Below, one piece after another: positions 2,661-19,836 of a DNA stretch of 30,330 nt. Location of the stretch: assembly GCA_000182565.2 (NCBI GenBank), contig KQ257472.1. One strand, written 5' to 3'. The notes beneath the pieces are model-generated. The model made no database searches. It was given only the letters and a program-made list of their open reading frames with translations, and was not told the DNA's origin. Both the position numbers and the translations under genes were made by a program. The DNA is from Spizellomyces punctatus DAOM BR117 (Eukaryota). The first letter of the stretch is position 1, and the number at the start of each line of letters is the position of its first letter.

Positions 2661-5600
2661 CTACGCAGGAAAGGTTTTCAATATATAGTTGAACAGCGTT
2701 AGGATCTTGCCTCGATCGCCGTCCATGATATCTAAAAGGAATTTACAGGTTAATATCGTGTGTTGGACCACGAAAAAAAAAATGCCACATGGACAAAATG
2801 GGTCAACCCACCTTGAGGAGAACAGAAACCAGTCGATATTCCCTTCTTGGTCAAGAAATTGAGTGCTACCGCAATGTTATCGATTTTATGGACAGGCAAC
2901 ATGGCGCGCTTATTGTACTTCCCAACAGACTCGCCCGTGCAGTCCTGAAATTTAAAACATTAGTTGCATGAACCGAACGGAGTTTGGTCCGCGCATGTTT
3001 TTACCTCTAGTGCATAAATCAGATTTAATCCATTCCCAAGTGCAGAGTATAGGTTATCAACTTGGATGTCATGTGCGACTAGGTGCTTGTTCAACCATTC
3101 CAGACCGCCCTGATGTATTTATATGGTGTGAGCATTTGCAAGCACACATCCAGCATGATCCGGACCGCCCACCTTTTCAATGGCCTTGTCATCTCCACTA
3201 ACACTCGATTCCTTTCGCTTAAAGTTCTGTAACCGCCAGGTCAAGGTCAATACCTGAGAGAACTGCACTGCAACAGCCCGCATCTACATACCAGCGCTGG
3301 GCCGTTAAATAAATCTGTATGAGACGGAGAACGGCCCGCAGCTGCTACTCGACGTGTGGTCGGAGATACCACAGCCGGTTCCTTTTGATGCAGAAATATG
3401 CGTAATATGAGTTTCAATATACTGAGCACAATGATAAAAATTACTTACAGCCTGTGTATCCTGGTCCCCTGGACGAGTCTGAAGCGGAGCTGGGAGCACC
3501 TACACATACAAGGCGATCAGGAACAGGTAGAGATTTCACGTCTTTGAAACGCTCCAAAATGCTTACTTCTTCCGGAGGCGGCGTACCAGCACCGTCCGCT
3601 ACATGTTCTTCAGCAATATGGTCATCCTGTGACAGTGACCGTGGAAATGCTGGCGGTCCGCTCCTCCCAGTGACCGCAGCGGCCAACGCTCCCAGGGCCC
3701 CATGGTTGGTAGCAAAGAGGCCAGGAATTCTCCGCGGTTTGGGAGAAGGAGCCTCCCCGTGATCCTCAACTGCCGTCGAAGACGGTTCTTCATGGCCAGG
3801 AACGGAATCCGTAGCCGAAACCGTTGACACCACAGACATTGGACGCTCACTCGCCATTGAGGTAGGTCGTTGAGCAGTGCCCGGTGGCATCGGTCGTACC
3901 TCAGCCGGAACCTCGTCAAAGTGCGTACTCTTACGGGTAGCGCCCGGTTTGGGAGGCACATTAGGAAGGGGTGGCGATGGACTATGGTCATCTGCCGTGC
4001 TCTTCCGCATTGGGCTATGTGAAGGAACTGGCCTTGGTGGGCGGCGTGGGACTGGTGCTGGAGGTTCAATCGTCCCGACCGGAGGCGAGCCTGGGGATTG
4101 TGGCTCGTCGTAGGTACCTCTCCTAATGGGGGTGGAAGGAGCTACTCGCGGTGGAAATCGACCGATGGATTCCTCTGACGGTGTATCCTGATGGACACTG
4201 CGACGGTCTCCGGCTTCGGAATACATGCTCGTCGGACGGCCAGCACTGGCGCCGGAATCAGAATACATACTCATCCGATTCCCTCGGCCACTTGCAATGC
4301 TAGCAGTCTCATCTGCTTCTGAAGCCGTCTCATCGCCAGTCTTTTGGTTGCCTCGCATCACAGAAGCGAGCGCGCTCATGGCAGAATTGCCCTGAGGCTT
4401 TTTAGGCCTTGAGGGTACAGCTGGAGGTCTCTCTGGACCTCCTGCCGGAGCTTCGGTGTACCCGTCATCGCTAGCGTGTTGTTCTCCAGATTGAGCAATC
4501 TGGTCTGTAACGCCAGGTAGACTAGCACCGATAGACCCAGGTCGGCTATGGGTCGGCTTGGAAGATCGGGAACTTGTGGAACTCTGTGATTTCTCATGTC
4601 CGCGCGTAGAGTCTTCATATGGCTCTTCTTCACGGGCTTGTACAGGAGGCCGTGCTGCTGGGCGAGGAGGGACTGCAACGGGTGGATGATCCACTTCTGC
4701 GCCTGCCTCCTCAGAAGGGTGCGAAGGCTCCTGTTACACATCACAACGGTTAAGGCTGGAAATCATTCGTAGATTAATCAGCAGGACACTTACCGTAGAT
4801 TCCGAAGCGTGAGGCTCATGCTCTCCGGTCTCGTCATCCTTTCCGCTCTTTTTGCCTTTCTTTGGTCTGGACTTTGTCAAGTGACTGAGCATACCGCGAA
4901 TCCCCATCTTTGGTGACTTTTGCCCCTTATGTTTGTCCTTTTCCTTCCCGGCGACATTCTGGTCAGACACAGATGAGCTCATCTGCTGGGGCGGCGCCAG
5001 GCTCTGTTCTGGCATGGAAGTCACAGTTGGAACCCGTGCAGGCGCTGCTGGCGGCTGCTGGCCAGGCACAACTGCAGCAGGCGGTATTGCATGTGTTTCT
5101 GCGGGTTCATCCTCCATCTGTGGATAGTCCTGTTCTGACTGCACGTCTTGAGGCTCCTGAGTCACTTCTCGCGTCAGGGAACGAGGGTTATACTGATCAT
5201 CGTCACTCCCGGCTTCATCTTGCGCTGAGTATTGAACAGCAGGACGGTTGAATTTTGGCGGGGGTCCCGAAAGCATACGATTAAGGTTGGATACAAATCC
5301 CGTACGGCCGTCCCCTGGCGGATTTCCACCCTCGGTCTCTTCCACGTCCATTTCTTCGGCCTCATCTGGCGTCAAGTCCGTTAGTGACTGACGGGACTTT
5401 GCAACCGGTGATCGCTCGATCGGCGGAGGCAGACGCGAAGTAGTAGAGGGGCCCTGATTAACGGCGATGCTTTTTGGTCGGGGCTTCGTCAGTGGTGGCG
5501 GCTGCGGTGGCGGCACAGCTTCTGAGGCAGAATATGGTCGTGACACCGCAGTATCTGCCGCGGGTCGAGGAACAACGGGTGGTGGTGACGGATTTGTCTT

Positions 5601-6436
5601 AACCTGTGTCGCAGTCCTCTGAGGTGCCGAAACTGGATGGGGACGGGGAGCGGTTGCTGAAGGCTGCAAAAATGAACGGACAATCATGATCAGCGAACTG
5701 CATATTGGAAACGATACAAATTACACATCACGCACCTGAGAAGTGGTGGACTGCGTTACTTCAAGCTTATTGGTTACACGCTGAATCCTTGCGCTTAAAC
5801 GGTCCTCTGTTGCGGCGTTCGCAGTTTCGATCATGCCCAAATATGTATCATGGACGTCATTACGGAAAGTTGTAGTGATAAAGTCATTCAACAGAGCGTC
5901 GAGTCCTCCAACAAGGTCCATTCGATGAGCAATCTCTTGCAGAGCTTGTCGGCATGATTCTACAGCACCTTCACCTACACGCGTCGTTCAAAGATTCAAG
6001 GTTTAGAGCGCGTTCCTTCCATTGCATATTGATTAACGACAGCACCTAAATCATCAGAATTTGCATCGTCTGCTCCATCTGCCTCATATACAAAGCGAAC
6101 TTCGTCCAGCACAATGTTCACCAATTTATCTAATTCTCGTCGTAGAGCTGCATCCGCCCTTCCAACTGCATCTCTAAAAGAGGTCTTCAACGAACGAACC
6201 AGACGATCATCGACAATATGTGTGGTGTTTTCAGTGAGCCCAGTCAGTGCGCGCCCATACGATTCCACGTCGTCCGTTGCAGCATAGGCTGACCGTATGA
6301 GAGCAGACGAAGGATTTTTCTCATGAGCTTCATAGCTTGCAACGACTTTCTTCAGCCGCTCCGTAGCAGCGGACAATTGGGCGCTTGGGTACCTTGACGC
6401 TACGTTTGAAAAATATGCAAATTGCAGGTCAGCCAT
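2661..6436 (-). CDS. Multi-exon proline-rich cytoskeletal adaptor: N-terminal helical region, CPI motif, many PxxPxR/K motifs, C-terminal calponin-homology (CH) domain
   Basis: ORFs 5996-6463, 5721-5921, 4734-5687 and 3441-4694 appear to be exons of one gene; the probable start is MADLQF (ATG at 6436). The last exons (3109-3005, 2944-2812, 2731-2661) splice to GGLEWLNKHLVAHDIQVDNLYSALGNGLNLIYALEDCTGESVGKYNKRAMLPVHKIDNIAVALNFLTKKGISTGFCSPQDIMDGDRGKILTLFNYILKTFPA*, an actinin/filamin-type CH pattern. Not every upstream junction was verified. Confidence 0.8.
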
Positions 6437-7394
6437 GTGTGTCAACTGGTCCTCGCGCTCCACATCCCTCCGATCGCACTGAGCTCAGACCCACAAAGGG
6501 TTTATACCTTGTAGTGACATGTCCCTATTCTTGTCCGCAGGTGCGTTTTATAGTTGTGCCAAGTTTCCCGGATGGCGCGGCGCATAAACACACGAGACGT
6601 AAAGGGCGATCCGCTCACACAGTCGAAAGTTGTCATGCAAAAGCAAATAATGGCGAACCGCAGATTTCTCCAAGTGTAGTCCTGTACACTTGACAGTTCT
6701 GGCAAGCGTTCTAAAGATAGCCTAACTTGGATGGGCAGCGGGCCTGCTGTTGAAGCGCTTGGGCGGCCAACTGCACGGCGCATCACGTGCCCCAGTCGTG
6801 TGTAACCTAGCTAAGCCTGCTGCTCCATCAGTTATTTAAGGTTAATGGCAATAACAAACATGTTGTTTGGGTTTGGCAGCAACCAGCTCGGATAAAGCCT
6901 GACTACTATCTGGCTTAATTACACATATGACACATTAGGGTTGGTCTAACTGGGTAACTAGTGTCCACCACCACAAGACAAATCCTACAAAGGCCGGGGT
7001 CCGAAGCGTTCCGGTCAGAGAACGTTCAGATACTAGTTGAATGAGTGATGCGCGTGGCAACGGCAAAATGTTCCACTGATTAGATGTACGCACGAGCAAT
7101 CATTGCAATCATCATGGCCGCAAATCGATATGTTTTGTTTATCTCCATGATGGTGCCACAATACATGTGGTTAATTCACAAGAGGACTAAAGAAGGGGAT
7201 ATGGTTGGCTCCTTTAGACATGTTCCTTCCTACTTGTGTCAATGATTCTCCAATTACAAGGCTGCCTTATCAGATGGCACTGGTGGAAACAACATGATTG
7301 AATAAGCTCCTGATTTTTTCAGTTTTTTTAATTTCTAAACGTGTCTCTATGATACATGTAATCCCAGACCCCCTTTTCTACCGACCCACATCAT

Positions 7395-9786
7395 CTACCA
7401 TTGCCCATCGAATCCCATGAAGCCACTCAAGAGAAAGACGGGGAAATATCGCTTCTTCTCTAAAGTCGAACACCAGTTCCACGCCGAGGTCAATCTTCCA
7501 TCAATGCATGAACCAGCGTCTAAAAACAGTAGCACATTGAAGATCCATATTGAATCAGTAATGGTTAGGTAACAAACACTTACCAAAGAAGTTATCCGCA
7601 CCACTTCCGTCAAAGGCATGTCGAAAGAAGTCCGCGAGTATCTCCTTCCGTAATCTTTCCGTCCCTCCAAACTGTCCGTCAATGTAACCCTTTATGCCGG
7701 GATTCTTGACCAGATCTTCCAACTGCCCCAAACAATTGCAAATTGGCAAAAGAATGCGGTAAACTTGGGTGTATTTGTCGATAAACATGAGCGCATTTGG
7801 AACATTCTAATAGAGCACATATCGATGTAACCGATTAGATACATATGGATAGCGAGTACGAGGTTTGCATATACTCACATGATCTCCCAAATGGATCACT
7901 GATGACCCAACCCAGTAGCCCACCCTCTTCTGTGCACGATGCAAAATCGTGTGCATCATCCGCGACACCCTTGGGGCGGCCTGCACGCGATTCAATCCCT
8001 GGCCGGTATCTCTCAGGCGGTAGCCGTTTTCATCGCTCAACAGATCCTGCTCAGCAAGGCTCCAGAGCATAAACATATCGTGCATAATCTCTCTCCACAG
8101 TGTCAAGGACTGCAATACATAGTGGTATTGCTTGCCATGATCGTGTGAAAGCCGCGCACCTCCTCGCCCCGATCTAATCGCCAGGGAAAACCCTTGCTCT
8201 TCCTTTTCAGCATCAAAATATTTTTGCAGGTACGATATCATCTTATCACAAGGGTCCCTATTAACGCGTAGGAAAGCATGATTGTCGCCAATGGAATATA
8301 GACATTGTCGGATGAGGTCCGGCTTCAATTCACTACTTCCATATTTTCGCGCCAGCTGCTCAATGGCGCGCTCTTTCATTTTGATTTCCGACTGAACTTG
8401 ATGCCGGCTTTTCCCTTCAGACAGAATCTCCTGTGTTGCTATCGCGATCAGATCGTCTTCCAGAACTCTCAATCCATTCAGCTCGCTGAGGACCGTGTAC
8501 ACAGTCTTTATAGGTTTAACACAGGTAAACTCCAGCATATCTTTTACTTCAGGGATTTGCGAGTCTTGCAGCAGGTAAACAAGCTTCCCGTAAGTAGTTC
8601 GCATCTTCTCCGGATTCATGATCTTATGCCGCCGCCCTAGCTCGAAGCTAATTGTAACAAAACATGGGGTGAGGGGTTATGATACTGAGCCACAAAAACA
8701 TGCCCTTCCTTACATTTCCTGGAAGAACTCGGCATTACTTCCGAAATCTCTATCTTGGAAAAGTTCTTGTCCAACTTTGTAATCAGCCGCCAACACAAGA
8801 CCCGATAATATGGCACAAAGTTCTTTGATTTGCGACACAATCCGCTTGCTTTTGCTTCCATAACTTAGGATATCGATACGGTCTGTATACTCAGACACGC
8901 TCAGTGCAGCTTCCAACAAACGAAGGTATTTGCGCTCGTCCAAGGTTAACCGTAATGGTATAAACTTTGCTCTCTCCAAGAACCAGTCACCAACGGGCGC
9001 CTTCGCGGTTGGCTGTTCGCCCATCAATTTGAAATCGTCGCTGAGTTCCTCATCTTCCTGGTTTTCGCCGTTGGCCGTTACAGCTGGTTCTGCCTGAATT
9101 TTAAGATATTTTAGGGCGGTATGGATGATCCCCGTCCCTGGACTCTTTGTCACGCATTATTGATGAATCCTCTTCAGCCCGGCAATTTCCCCTCTCAGTT
9201 TCCCTACCCACCTCTGCTTTTCCATTCGATCGCTTCGCTTTCTTCTGGGGGGTTGTCGATTGCAAGGATTTTGTGCTGTGTCGCTTTCGATTTCCCTTGC
9301 GGTGCTGTGAGTGGAAGCAAACTTCGCAGTAATTGTCCGCACACTGCTCGCAAAACACCGACGCAGGTTGATCTGCAGTTGTACAAGACCATCAGCCTGT
9401 CAAGCAGAAAATAGTCTGCTAAAAGCTGGAGAACAAAACCAACCTTCACACTCTACGCAATATCCGACAGGCGCCGACTTGTTTTTCCCTCGCCCATTTT
9501 CAGAGTCACTTCCGCTGGCACTTGCTTCCGCATCAGTGTCCTCCCCTACTCCATTCTGTGAATCTGGTCCAAGTCTCTCGACTTGACCGTCCAAAATGTC
9601 CCCCAGACTGACGGAACCCTGCGCCGTTGTGTTGCTCTCGTCACTAACGGCAATGTCCATGGGCGAATCACCACCGATATTATTGGCTGGGAGGGGGGAA
9701 TATAAAGGTGTGGAAGGAGGAGAGGGTCTTACAACCCAGGATGCGTCTGTGGCGTGTGCGGAATCTTGTAACGTTTGTCTGCTCAT
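7395..9786 (-). CDS. UPF0652/DUF2009 family protein with N-terminal B-box-type zinc finger
   Basis: Family motifs: ERAKFIPLRLTLDERKYLRLLEAALSVSEYTDRID, MNPEKMRTTYGKL, GARLSHDHGKQYHYVLQSLTLW, WVGSSVIHLGD, DFFRHAFDGSGADNFF..AGSCIDGRLTSAWNWCS, GFMGFDGQW*. Spliced CVECEDQPASVFCEQCADNYCEVCFHSQHRKGNRKRH is a B-box. The start codon is uncertain (9786 or 9885). Confidence 0.85.
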
Positions 9787-11899: not shown

Positions 11900-14800
11900 A
11901 TGGTCATGGCGATGACAGCGACGGCGGCTCCTCCTCTACTCCCGCAGTGGAGGTCAGAATCACCGGGACCGGATTGCGCAACACTCCGTCACCGCCTGGA
12001 AAAGCTGGGCTACAAGGAATATCTCCCACCAGATGCTGTCCCTTTGGTTAGAAAGTTACTTGCAGATTTGGTAGTGACGACCGAGACGTGCCGAAAGTCA
12101 AAGATAGAAACAGACAAGTGGAAGGCCGATGCGGCTGCAATCCAGGCTCAGGTAAGCTAAAGCGTGATTTAAACATCATGACGACTTTATTGGATCTCCA
12201 CAAGAAAGCTATGGATTTGTTGTGCTTTTGTACTTTCCAACCTTCCCGCGTTGTAATCGCATCACTTTATGACTTCCTAGGTGTCACCTTTACGGAGTGA
12301 GATATCTCGGCTCACAGCGGAGAATAATCACCTTCACCACGATATAGTACGATTGGCCGACGAGCGTGATGCCCGTGAGAAGCGAACAGCGCAAGCAGCG
12401 CGCCGTTTCGAGTCGCAAACAGCAGATCTGAGATTCGTGGCATCACAGTATGCGCACCGTGTCGAGGTCGAGCAACAGCGGGTGGAGGAAGCACGTGCGA
12501 AGACAGAAGAGGCACTCGCAAAGCTGGGGCTATTTGAGAAGGCGATTGCCGAAAGCAAGGTTAACGCAAAGAGCACTGGCAAAGGGAAAGGGGACGCAGC
12601 TGCGAGAGCGGAAAAGCTGTTTCAAAGACTGCAGAAGATTGATATTGAGACTGGCCTTGAGCCACTTCAAAATCCCCCGGTGCACTTTCCTCCCCCTGAT
12701 CCAATGATCGCGGATATGGTCAAGCTGGCGGAGGGTCGCATTGCAAATCTGGGAAAAGCCATGGACCTGCTATCCGCCAAAAACCTGGATCTGGAAAATG
12801 AGGTACTCATTTGTCATTTTACCCCTGGGATCAACCTCCACACCACTGACTCTGCATTTTACCAGCTCGACCTCATTCGAAAGAAACTTGAAAATCGAGA
12901 GCAAGAGATGGAGCGGCTTGGTGCTCAGCTCGAGATTGCACGTGCGCAGCAGTTTAGTACCGTCCCGCTGAGCAGCGGTACCCGGGAAGGAGGCGTAGAC
13001 GGGAAAGTGCAGAACATTCAGGATCTTAACGTTGCAAGACAGCGGATCGAGCAATTGGAGATGCAGTTAGAATATCTGCAGGAGCACGTGGAGGGACTTG
13101 AAAAAGAAATCAGTGCTCATGATGAAGAGAAACAGAATTTGTACGCTACTCTTGATGCAGAAAAGCAATCTCTCGCCCAACAATTAGCCCGTGAACGTGA
13201 CCGAACGAAAGGCTTAATGAATAGTGTGGACAAGCTTGAACGCATGGTTGAGCAAAACGATGTTATTCGAGAAAAAGGCATCCGACAGGACGCCAAGAAA
13301 AGACGGAGCATGAGCCCCGAAAAGCAGAAGCCCGAATCTGACTCTGCGGAGGAGACTTCTGGTGTGACGGCCAAGGCAAATGCAAATGAGGAGCGACGTC
13401 AGGTTAAGAGGTTACAAGATGAGGTCGAAGCCCTCAAAAACGAAAATGCGCGATTATCGGAATATATGCGAACTCGGCCACCAGAACAGGTTATACCGCC
13501 AGTTTCCGGGGACAGTACTCGACGTCAGGAAGAGCGGGATCCAAGTTTGCCTCAGCAAATCCAGAAGCTTAAGGACGAGAAAGCTTCGCTCACTATCCGA
13601 TTAAGGGAAACTGAAGCACAGAAGTGGGCTTTAGAGACCGATTTCAAATCGTTACAAGGACAGGTATATGGATATCCAATTCGCGCAAGAAACCTATATG
13701 CCATTGCTGATGTATTTACGGCAGATTGAGCATGCAAGTAAACTGGAAAGTGAACTGGTCTCTTTAAGAACTCGCGCGCAAGTGCTGCAGAGAGAGTTGG
13801 CCACTCAGCAAATTGAGTGCAATCAAACGACCAGGAACCTGGAAGTGGCCGAGAAGATAAAGGACGAGGTGAGCAGTAGCAAAGAATTCGGTTCTAATAC
13901 TTGACTTTTTTTTCGACAATCTGATGACCTTCGCATAACTAAATAGGCTCTAGCCAACCAAACGCGACTTGCAACTAGTCTGGATGCCGTACAGCGAGAG
14001 CGTGACGATTTAATTCTTGTGCTACAGAAATTCGAGATGCAACTGACTGATGTGCAAAGCTGCGTCGAGATCGTCACGGCTGATCGCGACAACATTGCGG
14101 CACTTTATACCCAGGTTGGCACTCTTCAGAGACGTTGCGAGTATCTTGTCACTTACGACTGGAACTCATCGGAACTTTGTAGGTCACAGAAGAATTACAC
14201 CTACTTCGCAGCAATCCCTCTCTCCAAGTGCCAAAGGGTCAGGTCCCTCCTCCACGACCAACTGCACCTCCCGAACCTTCTGCCCCAGTGCTATCACCCG
14301 AAACTGGAGAGCCGCAACGCACTGTAGACTTTGCGCAATGGACTGACAGTCAACAAAAAATACGTCAGCTTGAAGAAGAGGTGCAGCAGCTACAGCAAGA
14401 CCTTAAGGCCGCGGTGCATCGGCAACGAGAGATTGGCACTGGAGCTGATGATGTAGTACAGCATCTTCATGGGGAGTGTGAAAGGTGTGTGCCCATTCAT
14501 CGTTACTGCAGCAATTTCCGCGTGCTTTCGATTAATATGCATATGACTCTTAGCTTACGGGCTGCGCTGGCGATAAAGGAACGTGATAATGCGGAACTCC
14601 AAGACCGTTTGCGAACTGCTGAGAAGCTAGGGGAGAACATGCAGCTGGACGCGGAAGACCTTCGACGACGAGAAGAAGCTCTGCGTAGCCGGATTTCTGA
14701 AATGGAGGCAGAACGCGATCGCGGGGTAAGTTCTGCATCTCCCATATGGCGGCATCACGTCCTGCTCTCAGCGAAATATCGAGAAGATTTAACAAAGCTT

Positions 14801-17209
14801 TTATCCAAATTAGAGCTTCCAAGTACGAGATTTCCGCTCAAAGGTTACTGATCTCGAACTGCGGTTGTCGCGGGCGACAGCAGAATGCGAACGTTTCCGG
14901 AAAGAAATGGAAATGCAAGCCCGTCAGTTAGCGGAGCAGCGGCAACTTCTAGTGGAGGTTGACGGTGAAAGGGACAAAGACAGAGCTGAGATGGATCGAA
15001 AGTGTGAACGAATTGTCGAATTGGAGGGCATTGTCTCAAATCTGCAAAACGGAACGCTGGCTGCGGAACAAGATATTGGAAATCTTCGCGAACAGGTCGA
15101 TCTCCTGAACCATCACCTAAATGAGCGGGATGCAGAAGTCGGGGCGCTTAGAACAAAGGTTGAAAATTTAATAGGCGACCGCGATCGATGGGCGGCAGAA
15201 GCACAGCGCAACGGCGAAGAGGCGCGCAATGTGGGTATGGACCTCGCGGCGTTGACAAGAGAGAATCAAATGTTAAACGGAGAGCTAGCGGAGGTCGCGA
15301 GCGACCGAGAAAGACTACGAGCGGAACTAGCGGAGACTGAAAGACAAGTGCAGCTTCTTGACGAGCTTGTTCAGGCGAAGGATCAGGAGCGGGAACGCCT
15401 CTTTGCTGCATACAGAAAGCTTGTGGCTGAACATGAGCGGCTTGATGTGGGTGTGCGCCTGGCGGGAGAGGAGAGCAATAACATGAGAATGGAGGTCATC
15501 CTGAGGGACAAGAGAGTACAGCAACTACAAAAAGCTCTAGATGAAGCGGCTGGAGAGGTCACAAAGTATAAGATTGACTTGGCCGCGTTCGAAAAACAGT
15601 GCAATAATCTGTCAAGGTCACTGGCGACGGCAGAGCGGGCCATTCGCCATCTAGAGTCGGACAAGCAGCGCCTGCTCAGAGATATCGCGGCAGCCCGCGA
15701 TTTAGCCCTTTCCCTTGAGCGTCATAAGGAAGAGCTGCAAAAGCAGCTTACCAGTGTGACGCTAGAGTGCGAGCGCATGCAGGCGTTAATAAAGAAGCTG
15801 GAAACAGATCGTGAAGCAACAGGGGCACAGATCCGCGCGGAAAGGTTGAAATCGGAGCGGCTAGAACATCTTGTCGCCATGGAGAGAACCCGTCAGTTTC
15901 AGACAGAAAAGGCTGCCAAAGATTATCAGGAATCAAAGGGGACGCTGGAGGATCAATTGCAACAGGTCAATCAGCAGCAAGCGCTGTCGCTACAGGCAAT
16001 GAGCAGTGACATGAAGGAAGCTCAAGCAGCGCGCGACAGTCTCAAGAAGCAGATATCCCAATTAGAGGGTGACTTGGCACGCACAAGAGAAGGTATGTCA
16101 CCCGTTGCCCTCACTCATTCACCAGTCGCAGACCCAACGTACTGACTCATCTGCTTCATAGCGCTTTCACAATCCGAAGACCGCTGTCATAAACTATCTT
16201 TGGAGGTCGCTGAATTAAAGGAACAAGTGGCGAATAAACAGATGGTGATGGAAGATCTCATGCGCGTGCATGAGGTACGTCGGCAAACCTCCTTTGGGCA
16301 CCATGTGCAAATTGAACTAAAGATTCAATACATACAGGCAAGTGAACCGGGCGGAGTGCGAGGCAAGAGTGATCTAGAAAGAAGGATCATGACTGAATTG
16401 GAGAACACAAAGCGACAGCTGAAGAAATATGAGGTACAGCGCCTGCACAATCACAAAGACTGTAAGATAGTAAGGGTCATTAAATCCGGTATTTAATAGG
16501 CACAAATCGCCCAACGTTTCCGCACCCCAGAAAAGATTTCTCCGGTCAGTGCGAAGACTTCTGATAATGACCCTGGTCTAGAACAATCTCCACACCCGCG
16601 TGGTATCTCATTGCCATCAGGGAATGACGCGGAAGCTGGGAGTAGTTCCCCCAATTCTCGCTCCGAAGGCAGCGCCTTGGACGACTCTACGGAAGAGGAT
16701 CCTGTGGTTGAAGGTAATTAAATTGCCGGATAGTTGTCGGTGGGCATTGCGCATGACCCGTTGATATTTGCTACCAGAAATGCTTGCCAAATTCGAGGCC
16801 GAGCGGCGCCACACAGGCAAGAGGAGTATCAGCCCCGGCAAGAGTTCCTCGCCTACCCCATCAGAAGCGCGGAAAAGTCCCTTGGTCTCCAGCGGCAAGC
16901 ATTCATCCAATTTGTCAACACCAGCGTCAACTACGAGCACGACCCCAACGTCAGCTGCAAAGAGTGTCGTCTCCCCGAGGCATAGGACACCTCCGCCACC
17001 CATATCGAGAAGCGGGACAACTTCACCTGCACGAGATGAAGAGCGCCAGAAACGTTTGGACGAGAGCCGAAGGTTATTGGAGACAATTGTACAGGTATGA
17101 TCAACCAGAAGCAAGAATAGTCGTGTATTTTGATTTGGTATCGACTCAACATACTGGATGACCATTCCAGGTTAAGGATGCATTACAAAGTCCTGGGAGT
17201 GGAAGATAG
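11900..17209 (+). CDS. CEP135: Centriolar/basal-body coiled-coil protein CEP135/Bld10 orthologue (multi-exon)
   Basis: The N-terminus LRHRLEKLGYKEYLPPDAVPLVRKLLADLVVTTETCRK...PLRSEISRLTAENNHLH matches the conserved CEP135 N-terminal signature (LR.RLD.LGY......PLVEKL..DLV.TTE...PY..EN.RL..ENN.LH). Long coiled-coil exons follow (12281-13729, 14865-16145), then an S/T/P-rich tail. Probable last exon 17171-17209 (VKDALQSPGSGR*); if that intron is not spliced the stop is at 17100. The start is one of the ATGs at 11900, 11906 or 11912. Confidence 0.88.
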
Positions 17210-17399: not shown

Positions 17400-19595
17400 T
17401 TAAAATTTCTTCCCAACACGACTGCTCTTCATCGACACCGTCTTGCGCAATCCCTTAAACTTTCTAGCCTCATTTCTACTCATCCGGTTTCTATCCCTAG
17501 TTCCTTTTCCACCTTCCCAAAATCCACTACCGGCATTCTTCACGGTCTCCTTGCCGCATTTACAGACACCCTCTTTGGTATACGGCTGCTCGCGCGAACA
17601 GAATCCGCACACCATACGGGTAGCCCAAGCCATTTCGTGCTTATCGGCTTTCCCTTCTTCGTGACAAATATCGCATGGATAAACTTTGCTGCAGCAAGGA
17701 AAGCGAAACCACCGATAAGATTTCTTGTAGTGAGAGCATGTACCGTTTTTGGGGAGCGGGGTGTTTGGGATAAAGATCTGGGCTGGGTCCTTTGCGGCCG
17801 TTTTGATCCTATTGGATTTCTTGGGAGGTAGCGATGCGTTTCCTAGCGTAAGAAACTTTACTTGGTCAACCTGCAGCGTCATTTTTGTGTGGCATGTCGT
17901 GCACGACATTGTAGTCGGATGGTTCCGAACAAGAGCTTTAAACCCGTGGCCGTTTGGTTGTGGACGGGCGCATGAGTCGCAGGTTGCGATATAATTCGAA
18001 GGGAGAAGGTCAAAAGGGATGCACATGTCCAGGTCAATGTACCCGATGGACAGTGATCCTGGATGGAGCATTTCAGATCGATATAAAAGTCCGAGAGTCG
18101 TCTTGCATTGTGGACAAGGAGTGTAGCGCGGTGTAGTAGTGAGGTTATGGACGTCGACTGACGTTTTGCAGCGAGTACAGCGGACTGCAATGTTGAGGGA
18201 TGTACATTCGAGAAGGGAGATGCTGGTAAGATGGATGTCGGGAAAGCGGATTTGTGTTCCTCTGTGACTTGACGGTGGTGGTGGTGTCGGTATTGCGGAG
18301 AGATAGGTGGATATTTTCTCGCTTAGATCAATAGAATCTCCGGGATATGATTGGTCCGGGTCGTTTTGCAACTGCCCGGCGTCAGTTCCTTCCTCTTCTG
18401 GCACTCTACTGCCGATATGCCGACGATCACGCTGACTTTCTTCATCCTCGTCGGATCCCCCCGCGGAAGAGGGGCTACTGGTTGATGCGTCGTCGTCCCC
18501 GACACGTTGTCCGTAATATCCATCTCCCGGCCCCGCCGATGGTACATCCTCAGCAAAGGTCACCGTCCCGTTGGTTAAACCAGAAGCAATCCTCTCTCGT
18601 CCTTCGTTTCTCACGAATACTATCCTGCCTGTAGGTTCATCGGGCATTACCAACAGCTGTTCCAGGTTCCTGTCCAACCAGTTAATCATCTGCAGTAAAC
18701 GTATCCTCGAGGCTGTAGCCTTTCTCATCCACGCCTTCTCAACGTTACGGCGTAAGGGGAATGGGATCTCAGGATTGATGACAGTTATGTGCGATGGGGT
18801 AGTCGGATACGTCGCGGGAATTCCAATGTGTAATAGGAGAATAGCTAAATCAAATGGGAAATCTGGATCGGTGGGAACCATGCCAATTTGAACAATGGTT
18901 TCCTGCGCTGTCTCTGATATGATATGGTATCCAGCCTCCCGAAATCGGCGCTCAAGCTGGTGTAAGTCCACCTGACGAGTGAGGTGGGCTTTGTCGACTG
19001 GGTCCGATGTTTCATTTAGCCGTGCTTCGAGGTCTTTCGGGGTCGGTCTTGCAACTGCAGGTGGAGGTTTTGCATTCTTTTTAGCAGAGGTATTCTTCGA
19101 GTTCAAAGTTTGAGACGCAGCAGGGTTGCTCCGATCGCCTTCCTTGGGAGAGGCTGTATTCACGACAGGTGCTTTTTTTGGAGTGGTTTTGGAAATTGGC
19201 TTTCTCTGCCTTCTCCTATTTTTCGCAATTTTCAATGTTGCAGATCTCGCTTCCGATAATGCACCTGTTTGTGACACTGGTTGAGGTTCAATTTGACTGT
19301 TCCCATCATGTGTGCTTATGTCGTGGTGGTTGATTGCGGTGATTGGAGATGGTTCCTGGTCGTGGCTATTTCTTTTTATTTCACGCGGGCGTCGTGTACT
19401 CTTACTCTTTCTCTCGCTCTGAACTGTGCCCTGCTTTTGCTCGACCGTCACATGCAAGAATTTGCAGTTCTCCCCAGTACGGCAGCCACCAGAAGATTTA
19501 AAGAAACGACACTTTGGTACAGTACGAGGACGAAGTGTAGGCGCAGGGCTATACTGGGGTAGCTGGGGAACAGTAGATATTTGGTCGGTGGACAT
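17400..19595 (-). CDS. CCCH zinc finger + RWD-like region + Cys-rich region + CHY zinc finger protein (intronless)
   Basis: CRFFKSSGGCRTGENCKFLH (CCCH); PTDPDFPFDL...IPATYP (RWD/UBC-like); several CxxC pairs; GTCSHYKKSYRWFRFPCCSKVYPCDICHEE...MVCGFCSREQ (CHY); basic C-terminus GFWEGGKGTRDRNRMSR. The probable start is MSTDQ at 19595, although the ORF stays open to 19775. Confidence 0.85.
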   Translation of the reverse strand: MSTDQISTVPQLPQYSPAPTLRPRTVPKCRFFKSSGGCRTGENCKFLHVTVEQKQGTVQSERKSKSTRRPREIKRNSHDQEPSPITAINHHDISTHDGNSQIEPQPVSQTGALSEARSATLKIAKNRRRQRKPISKTTPKKAPVVNTASPKEGDRSNPAASQTLNSKNTSAKKNAKPPPAVARPTPKDLEARLNETSDPVDKAHLTRQVDLHQLERRFREAGYHIISETAQETIVQIGMVPTDPDFPFDLAILLLHIGIPATYPTTPSHITVINPEIPFPLRRNVEKAWMRKATASRIRLLQMINWLDRNLEQLLVMPDEPTGRIVFVRNEGRERIASGLTNGTVTFAEDVPSAGPGDGYYGQRVGDDDASTSSPSSAGGSDEDEESQRDRRHIGSRVPEEEGTDAGQLQNDPDQSYPGDSIDLSEKISTYLSAIPTPPPPSSHRGTQIRFPDIHLTSISLLECTSLNIAVRCTRCKTSVDVHNLTTTPRYTPCPQCKTTLGLLYRSEMLHPGSLSIGYIDLDMCIPFDLLPSNYIATCDSCARPQPNGHGFKALVRNHPTTMSCTTCHTKMTLQVDQVKFLTLGNASLPPKKSNRIKTAAKDPAQIFIPNTPLPKNGTCSHYKKSYRWFRFPCCSKVYPCDICHEEGKADKHEMAWATRMVCGFCSREQPYTKEGVCKCGKETVKNAGSGFWEGGKGTRDRNRMSRNEARKFKGLRKTVSMKSSRVGKKF

Positions 19596-19836
19596 GCCGT
19601 TGGTGTTGGCTGCAAGGAACAAGGTTGGAATGTTTTGGGGACGAAGTGTTCTCGGTTGGGTTTTAAAATGGTGATGACATACAAGGGTGGGACAGCCATG
19701 GCAGACTGCAACATGACTGTCCCACCGAGGACTTGTTTGCATTTCTGACATTCCGTTTAACGATGTTGATATCATTTAAACATCCAAAAAGCTTTTTTGA
19801 TAAACTGCTTGAAAGTCGATAATTTATTCTTTGATT

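Follow-up and report, generated by a model that had tools for sequence, protein, structure and literature searches.

A conserved capping-protein-interaction-like motif in an undescribed chytrid protein family of probable CARMIL ancestry

Introduction

Does a ten-residue stretch in a disordered chytrid protein serve as a docking place for actin capping protein, and from which family would such a protein descend? The question is raised by SPPG_08642, a gene on the minus strand (2661..6520) of a 30,330-nucleotide stretch of Spizellomyces punctatus DAOM BR117 DNA (contig KQ257472.1), which is here called the window and to which all positions refer. A sequence-only reading of this DNA had proposed LSHLTKSRPK, followed by the basic tract KGKKSGK, as a capping-protein-interaction (CPI) motif in a proline-rich protein with a layout unlike that of the known CPI families. 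The consensus of the CPI motif is LxHxTxxRPK(x)6P (PMC5491179), and binding of CARMIL1 to capping protein is abolished by a double alanine mutation of the K-x-R pair (bioRxiv 2020.02.06.936211).

Fungal genomes appear to be without CARMIL homologues (PMC5491179), and PMC10881157 likewise found no fungal CARMIL; it confines Bsp1 to dikarya and names divergence from CARMIL as one possible origin of Bsp1, and its text supplements make no mention of chytrids or CARMIL. A survey of chytrid actin proteins (bioRxiv 2020.06.12.142943) lists CapZ and twinfilin, and its main text contains no CARMIL or CPI protein. Literature searches, which included locus tags and the combination of CARMIL with Gonapodya and had most subscription papers outside their scope, found the family undescribed and no CPI protein named for chytrids besides twinfilin.

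This paper describes a strongly conserved CPI-like motif, which is real and belongs to an undescribed chytrid family. This family is probably a CARMIL derivative that lacks PH and LRR domains and bears a CH domain. Binding of the motif to actin capping protein is predicted and judged very likely, and descent from CARMIL is judged likely; the overall explanation, a chytrid actin regulator that descends from CARMIL by loss of PH and LRR and carries a predicted capping-protein-binding motif, is considered fairly probable.

Conservation of the motif and its predicted ligand

LSHLTKSRPK (residues 461-470) is encoded by the minus strand of 4860..4889 in the open exon 4 and runs on into KGKKSGK, as the sequence-only reading had it, while the plus strand of the same positions gives no meaningful translation. 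Six of the six core residues of the consensus match. LxHxTxxRPK is expected by chance about 0.002 times in the window and 1.6 times in the six frames of the 24 Mb genome. A strict DNA pattern matched the own genome four times (control, 1), two of these matches truly encoding LxHxTxxRPK, the second of them antisense to a longer frame, and a looser pattern gave 29 matches versus 42 in the control. The motif by itself is near genome-wide chance; its significance comes from its conservation.

A profile search yielded 13 chytrid proteins, and in their alignment GMLSxLTKSRPK is invariant, the histidine is present in 11 of 13 and the K-x-R pair in all; the orthologue comparison that had been suggested for the motif thereby found it conserved, with nine of its ten positions invariant. 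No other 10-mer in the 730-residue disordered region is as well conserved (conservation score 0.98 versus a mean of 0.51; mean of the CH domain, 0.77). At a cut-off of E <= 0.001, a full hidden Markov model (HMM) scan returned 548 proteins, the listing covering the best 150. Among the 44 family members inspected, four are fragments not reaching the motif site and 40 span it. The motif is kept in 37 of these 40, namely 36 by pattern and Nowakowskiella P0034 as a Thr-to-Ser variant; the site pattern itself required the lysine and the arginine, which makes the 36/36 count for those residues circular, and the search profile included the motif. Carriers include Spizellomyces, Powellomyces, Geranomyces, Gaertneriomyces, Rhizophlyctis, Borealophlyctis and Chytriomyces, as well as Dinochytrium, Physocladia, Batrachochytrium, Gorgonomyces, Terramyces, Polychytrium and Caulochytrium. 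The variants in the family are S/T at position 2, H/S at 3, L/M at 4, S/G/A/D at 7 and P/A at 9, and they recur among 33 published Bsp1 motifs.

The downstream proline of the extended consensus, already noted as missing, is absent from SPPG_08642 and from the family (0/36 sites). Comparison with known motifs indicates that this absence counts for little: the final proline is also missing in all three CARMIL1 proteins retrieved (fish, amphibian), in which a basic tract comes after the RPK or RPR as well, and, by a count made by eye in supplement 2 of PMC10881157, 8 of the 33 Bsp1 motifs are without it and 5 of the 33 are without the histidine. Moreover, the CPI of newt CARMIL1 (P0158) matches the SPPG_08642 motif with its basic tail at 9 of 14 positions.

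Both capping protein subunits are encoded in the S. punctatus genome. In capping protein beta, the CPI arginine and the residues next to it are held by S41, D44, D63, Y64 and D67 (PMC2897767), and in the S. punctatus protein all five are in register, giving an intact CPI pocket; such a pocket is a necessary condition only, because twinfilin uses an overlapping site. The flanks of the motif are disordered on both sides (AlphaFold2, pLDDT < 50). From known CPI chemistry, the motif would wrap the stalk of capping protein, placing its arginine in the pocket of beta Ser41/Asp44/Tyr64, and would recruit or loosen capping protein at barbed ends; sequence cannot tell Bsp1-like recruiting from CARMIL-like loosening. 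The CPI reading is thus supported, at the level of sequence, by conservation, by a CPI-like substitution pattern and by the intact pocket on the organism's own capping protein beta.

Several observations pull the other way. The motif is absent from its site in Lobulomyces, Clydaea and Synchytrium (3/40) as well as in the Gonapodya proteins P0043 and P0068, and the histidine is kept in 24 of the 36 wider sites and replaced in 12. In yeast Inp51, a stretch that resembles the CPI gave no binding to capping protein (PMC10651396). Finally, read depth over the motif (4752-4898) was zero in RNA run X7, of which about 6% was read; the library is 3'-biased, so inclusion of exon 4 is not decided by this run.

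Domain layout and relationship to CARMIL

The AlphaFold2 model of SPPG_08642 comprises a helical domain (residues 11-200), disorder to about residue 937 and a single CH domain. The motif lies in a proline-rich linker; the sequence-only reading had described the protein as proline-rich but had missed the C-terminal CH domain and the N-terminal helical domain. The helical domain (5742..6382, minus strand), a candidate for the CARMIL helical domain (HD), consists of long helices with pLDDT mostly 75-95. A conserved pre-CH segment and the CH domain, which is of the CH1 (alpha-actinin) type, occupy residues 926-1046 (2667..3297, minus strand; PF00307, E 3.8e-11). The best structure match of the CH domain is the alpha-actinin CH1 domain 3LUE_K (Z 18.6, root-mean-square deviation (rmsd) 1.8), and the closest solved structures and sequences are CH1 domains of alpha-actinin, spectrin and filamin; unlike in those proteins, the domain is single and C-terminal, ends at the stop codon without a CH2 partner and falls into a clade with other C-terminal CH domains. 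A lone CH1-type domain would bind F-actin weakly, an affinity that dimerisation would strengthen. The protein also contains 23 PxxP motifs, six of class II form, a pattern of low specificity; SH3 proteins, myosin-I for instance, would dock on these tracts. Pfam scans of members of the chytrid family gave CH as the sole match. Pfam searches with single exons gave no match for the motif exon and only a weak CH match, and an ESM Atlas search with the motif exon had no match above 0.82. Bbc1, Bsp1 and FAM21 were rejected as identities on the ground that no matching Pfam domain was found.

One line of evidence that ties this layout to CARMIL comes from Gonapodya prolifera. P0043, a protein of 1573 residues found among the CH matches of the HMM scan, and P0068 of the same genus combine PH, linker, LRR, a helical region and a C-terminal CH domain, of which Pfam reports CH only. 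The best Protein Data Bank matches of the first 640 residues of P0043 are CARMIL1 4K17 (E 2.5e-22, linker signature included) and 9EC0, and in the Atlas this part lies near Carm_PH/CARMIL_C clusters. A database search with the CARMIL-like region returned two Gonapodya proteins and three LRRC16A proteins only. In the S. punctatus genome the sole match of P0043 is to the CH exons of SPPG_08642. The two proteins share, in the same order, the basic-hydrophobic (BH) block that overlaps the motif in SPPG_08642, an AMSALA block, the pre-CH segment and the CH domain. The AMSALA block (AMSALASVMRG, residues 609-619; 4350..4382, minus strand) scores 7.3 bits in Gonapodya, a value reached in 0 of 300 shuffles. 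Between AMSALA and pre-CH, P0043 has an MPxGA block, which is found in other family members and not in SPPG_08642. P0043 does not share the LNRML and RIPG blocks; the NLNRMLSGPPPKF block of SPPG_08642 was looked for in the Gonapodya proteins and not found there.

A second line of evidence is structural. The CARMIL HD has three long kinked helices, forms an antiparallel dimer and has no close structural homologue (PMC13004031). The N-terminal domain of SPPG_08642 aligns over 192 residues to 9EC0_B 674-875, the HD (Z 10.0, rmsd 3.6), at rank 40 of 50 rows; two N-terminal rows only stand above 9EC0, namely a 90-residue designed barrel and a match with an rmsd of 17.8. The HD is the best full-length structural match of the helical domain, with a Z that is not significant alone. 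The model of a Cladochytrium fragment (P0085) lands on the same HD (Z 7.5, rmsd 5.1, 178 of 190 residues, rank 19), which in Foldseek (TMq 0.48, E 1.3) has the highest TM-score among the rows listed. The N-terminal domain would then be a CARMIL HD forming an antiparallel dimer.

The alternative that survives best accepts a true CPI motif and holds that the protein was built independently of CARMIL, from a BAR-like helical domain, a new CPI and a mobile CH domain, the Gonapodya CARMIL having gained similar C-terminal parts separately. Between the CPI families there is otherwise no relationship, and most of the evidence that tells against CARMIL descent is also evidence for this alternative. The Z values of 10.0 and 7.5 fall below the bar of roughly 13 that applies to helical bundles in structure searches, and F-BAR ties with the HD match at Z 7.5. 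Sequence comparison of the N-terminal domain with the vertebrate and Gonapodya HD by hhalign gave E 0.1 and 0.58, values that did not improve on those of shuffles, and hhalign and hmmsearch against both HDs, P0070 and P0047 gave no significant match. In a tree of CH domains, the C-terminal ones form a clade of their own (100/100), which includes a domain on an unrelated SH3-SAM-PH scaffold of Chromosphaera (P0067), and therefore this CH module shuffles; the clade may represent an unrecognised mobile module. Gonapodya does not come out as the family's sister in this tree, which leaves an open fork in which monophyly is not rejected (p-AU 0.23). What independent assembly does not readily meet is the reciprocal best match between P0043 and SPPG_08642, the alignment of two models, over almost their entire length, to precisely the HD range, and the collinear blocks, which outscore nearly all of 300 shuffles, a comparison biased by the blocks having been chosen by eye. 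Independent assembly is regarded as unlikely.

CARMIL descent, the preferred explanation, does not make SPPG_08642 a CARMIL, and it should not be filed as one: PH, linker and LRR are absent from its N-terminus, which starts with the helical domain, the gene upstream being that of a DUF2009 protein. By inspection the S. punctatus protein (P0001) has no CSI motif; protist CARMILs are also without CSI (PMC5491179), and the motif is confined to vertebrates and higher invertebrates. Vertebrate CARMIL1 gave only a weak LRR match in the S. punctatus genome (E 1e-3), and searches of this genome with CARMIL_C, Carm_PH, PH_2nd_LRR and CAP-ZIP_m were silent for the controls as well and say nothing on absence. 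By analogy, SPPG_08642 would be CARMIL-like in its working, and it is probably CARMIL-derived. The sequence-only description of a layout unlike the known families is half borne out: a protein that lacks PH and LRR and ends in a CH domain is a new arrangement, but the evidence favours CARMIL descent over an unrelated family.

Two further observations concern the spread of such proteins. P0070 and P0047 are helical at the N-terminus, carry a CPI-like motif and end in a CH domain of the same clade, and P0047 has, before its CH domain, a stretch that by eye looks WH2-like; both are possible bridging forms. Two metagenome scans for bridging relatives, one of them for P0070, found none. Moreover, ascomycete and mucoromycete Atlas clusters of PF25353 (PH_2nd_LRR) score 0.91-0.92 against the Gonapodya CARMIL-like region, which suggests that CARMIL-like PH-LRR proteins may be more widely spread in fungi.

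A basic-hydrophobic helix overlapping the motif

The sequence-only reading was right to call the motif but had overlooked its overlap with a basic-hydrophobic helix, which represents a serious rival function. Residues 450-475 (4845..4922, minus strand) are the highest BH-like window of SPPG_08642 (score 0.77), with a hydrophobic moment of 0.56 and a helix predicted, at low confidence, at 457-465 (AlphaFold2). The block runs from a lysine cluster through a glycine to two hydrophobic pairs, the second of which includes the CPI leucine.

According to the main rival reading of the motif, the block is a membrane-binding BH helix only, like the membrane-binding (MB) domain of CARMIL; its CPI look is coincidental and capping protein is not bound. 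This fits the standing of the block as top BH-like window, the variable histidine, the close resemblance of the upstream half to the MB stretch of fish CARMIL1 (P0159, P0160), and the finding that Gonapodya, Lobulomyces, Clydaea, Synchytrium and P0046 have only that upstream half at the same place. However, membrane binding by BH stretches is largely independent of exact sequence (PMC5491179), and the fixed T-K-x-R-[PA]-K therefore needs another reason; a Pro or Ala after the arginine follows the CPI pattern and brings no gain for membrane binding. In addition, Synchytrium, which lacks the family motif here, has a separate CPI of Bsp1 type upstream of its BH block (P0028, residues about 285-302), as if the function must persist somewhere, and this arrangement may be ancestral. 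A helix serving the membrane only is considered quite improbable. Least probable of all, to the point of being very unlikely, is that the conserved block docks another partner (a kinase, importin, tubulin or other cytoskeletal protein), for although SPPG_08642 has several other equally conserved blocks with no ligand assigned and basic tracts can serve as nuclear signals, an exact 6/6 CPI core lies here in a protein with an actin-type CH domain and CARMIL-like relatives.

The reading preferred here gives the block both roles: a membrane helix and a CPI motif would be joined in it, and the helix would hold the motif site at acidic membranes. In CARMIL1, capping protein binding lowers the membrane association of the adjacent domain (PMC13208823), and by analogy a membrane/capping-protein switch is plausible. 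A more far-reaching proposal, put forward tentatively and in itself doubtful, is that Chytridiomycetes kept a streamlined CARMIL in which MB helix and CPI are merged in a 20-residue element sharing the CPI leucine, mutually exclusive binding acting as the switch, and in which the HD dimer, each arm of which bears a CH1 domain, also serves as an actin cross-linker that carries capping protein. On this proposal, the family, with the full-length Gonapodya CARMIL at one end, would record a stepwise loss of CARMIL in fungi and would be a precedent for Bsp1 arising from CARMIL, as has been proposed.

Comparison with known systems places SPPG_08642 closest to CARMIL (LRRC16A/CARMIL1; 4K17, 9EC0), with which it shares a probable HD ahead of a long disordered proline-rich half, a CPI that has the T-K-x-R-P-K-basic form and lacks the last proline, a BH-like stretch next to the CPI and, in its Gonapodya relatives, PH-linker-LRR. 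It differs from CARMIL by the lack of PH, LRR and CSI, by the added C-terminal CH domain, and by a BH stretch that precedes and overlaps the CPI, whereas in CARMIL1 it follows CPI-CSI; the HD homology is a purely structural one, taken from models. Dikaryan Bsp1 and Aim21 are likewise disordered fungal proteins, with a CPI in whose first half the residue choices are the same, but SPPG_08642 has RPK with a basic tail instead of R-A-R-G-P-x-R-x-x-P, and CH instead of ADF/gelsolin domains at its C-terminus. CD2AP/CIN85, CKIP-1, CapZIP and FAM21 share the CPI core consensus, whereas no SH3, PH or CAP-ZIP_m was found in SPPG_08642 by Pfam.

The actin toolkit that chytrids keep is like that of animals, and the family, if the overall explanation is true, is the capping-protein regulator missing from it. 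The CARMIL lineage would then have survived in early-diverging fungi both at full length (Gonapodya) and stripped of PH-LRR, and the latter form would be a natural test of what a CARMIL does once it has lost the LRR core and its sites for membrane and capping protein are fused. S. punctatus is transformable.

Gene model, transcript and neighbouring genes

SPPG_08642 has 11 coding exons on the minus strand (6520-6508, 6399-6046, 5974-5736, 5663-4794, 4730-3567, 3499-3449, 3381-3292, 3226-3173, 3109-3005, 2944-2812 and 2731-2661), and the translation of this model matches the database protein P0001 letter for letter over 1047 residues. All introns are GT-AG and 60-108 nt long, and exon 4, which contains the motif, is 870 nt long and open throughout. 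In RNA run X7 the last two introns were joined by 17 and 4 reads, and 35 reads had a poly(A) end near 2464; the gene is thus transcribed, as judged from junction reads and poly(A) ends at its 3' end.

Besides the features discussed above, the alignment contains a TKPRPKS block (residues 261-267; 5469..5489, minus strand), which is a partial second T-K-x-R-P-K and less conserved. The NLNRMLSGPPPKF block (residues 328-340; 5250..5288, minus strand) is a conserved short helix in the disordered region, and a further conserved block, RRIPG...HGALGALAAAV, covers residues 821-849 (3660..3746, minus strand).

The upstream neighbour, at 7807-9156 on the minus strand, encodes a non-canonical E2 protein of the DUF2009 family. 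In Batrachochytrium dendrobatidis a 1543-residue model (P0164) joins the orthologue of SPPG_08642 to the DUF2009 protein in the opposite order; it is probably a gene-model fusion, and the adjacency of the two genes seems to be kept with their order swapped. Elsewhere in the window, 17400-19775 (minus strand) is a single frame of 791 residues with a CCCH finger and a CHY zinc finger, and 12281-16145 (plus strand) is a long coiled-coil gene for which all Pfam matches are below threshold. Finally, about 1127-1462 on the minus strand, a short two-exon gene encodes a small Ala/Gly/Lys-rich protein, which by eye appears stress-response-like (CsbD/LEA-like).
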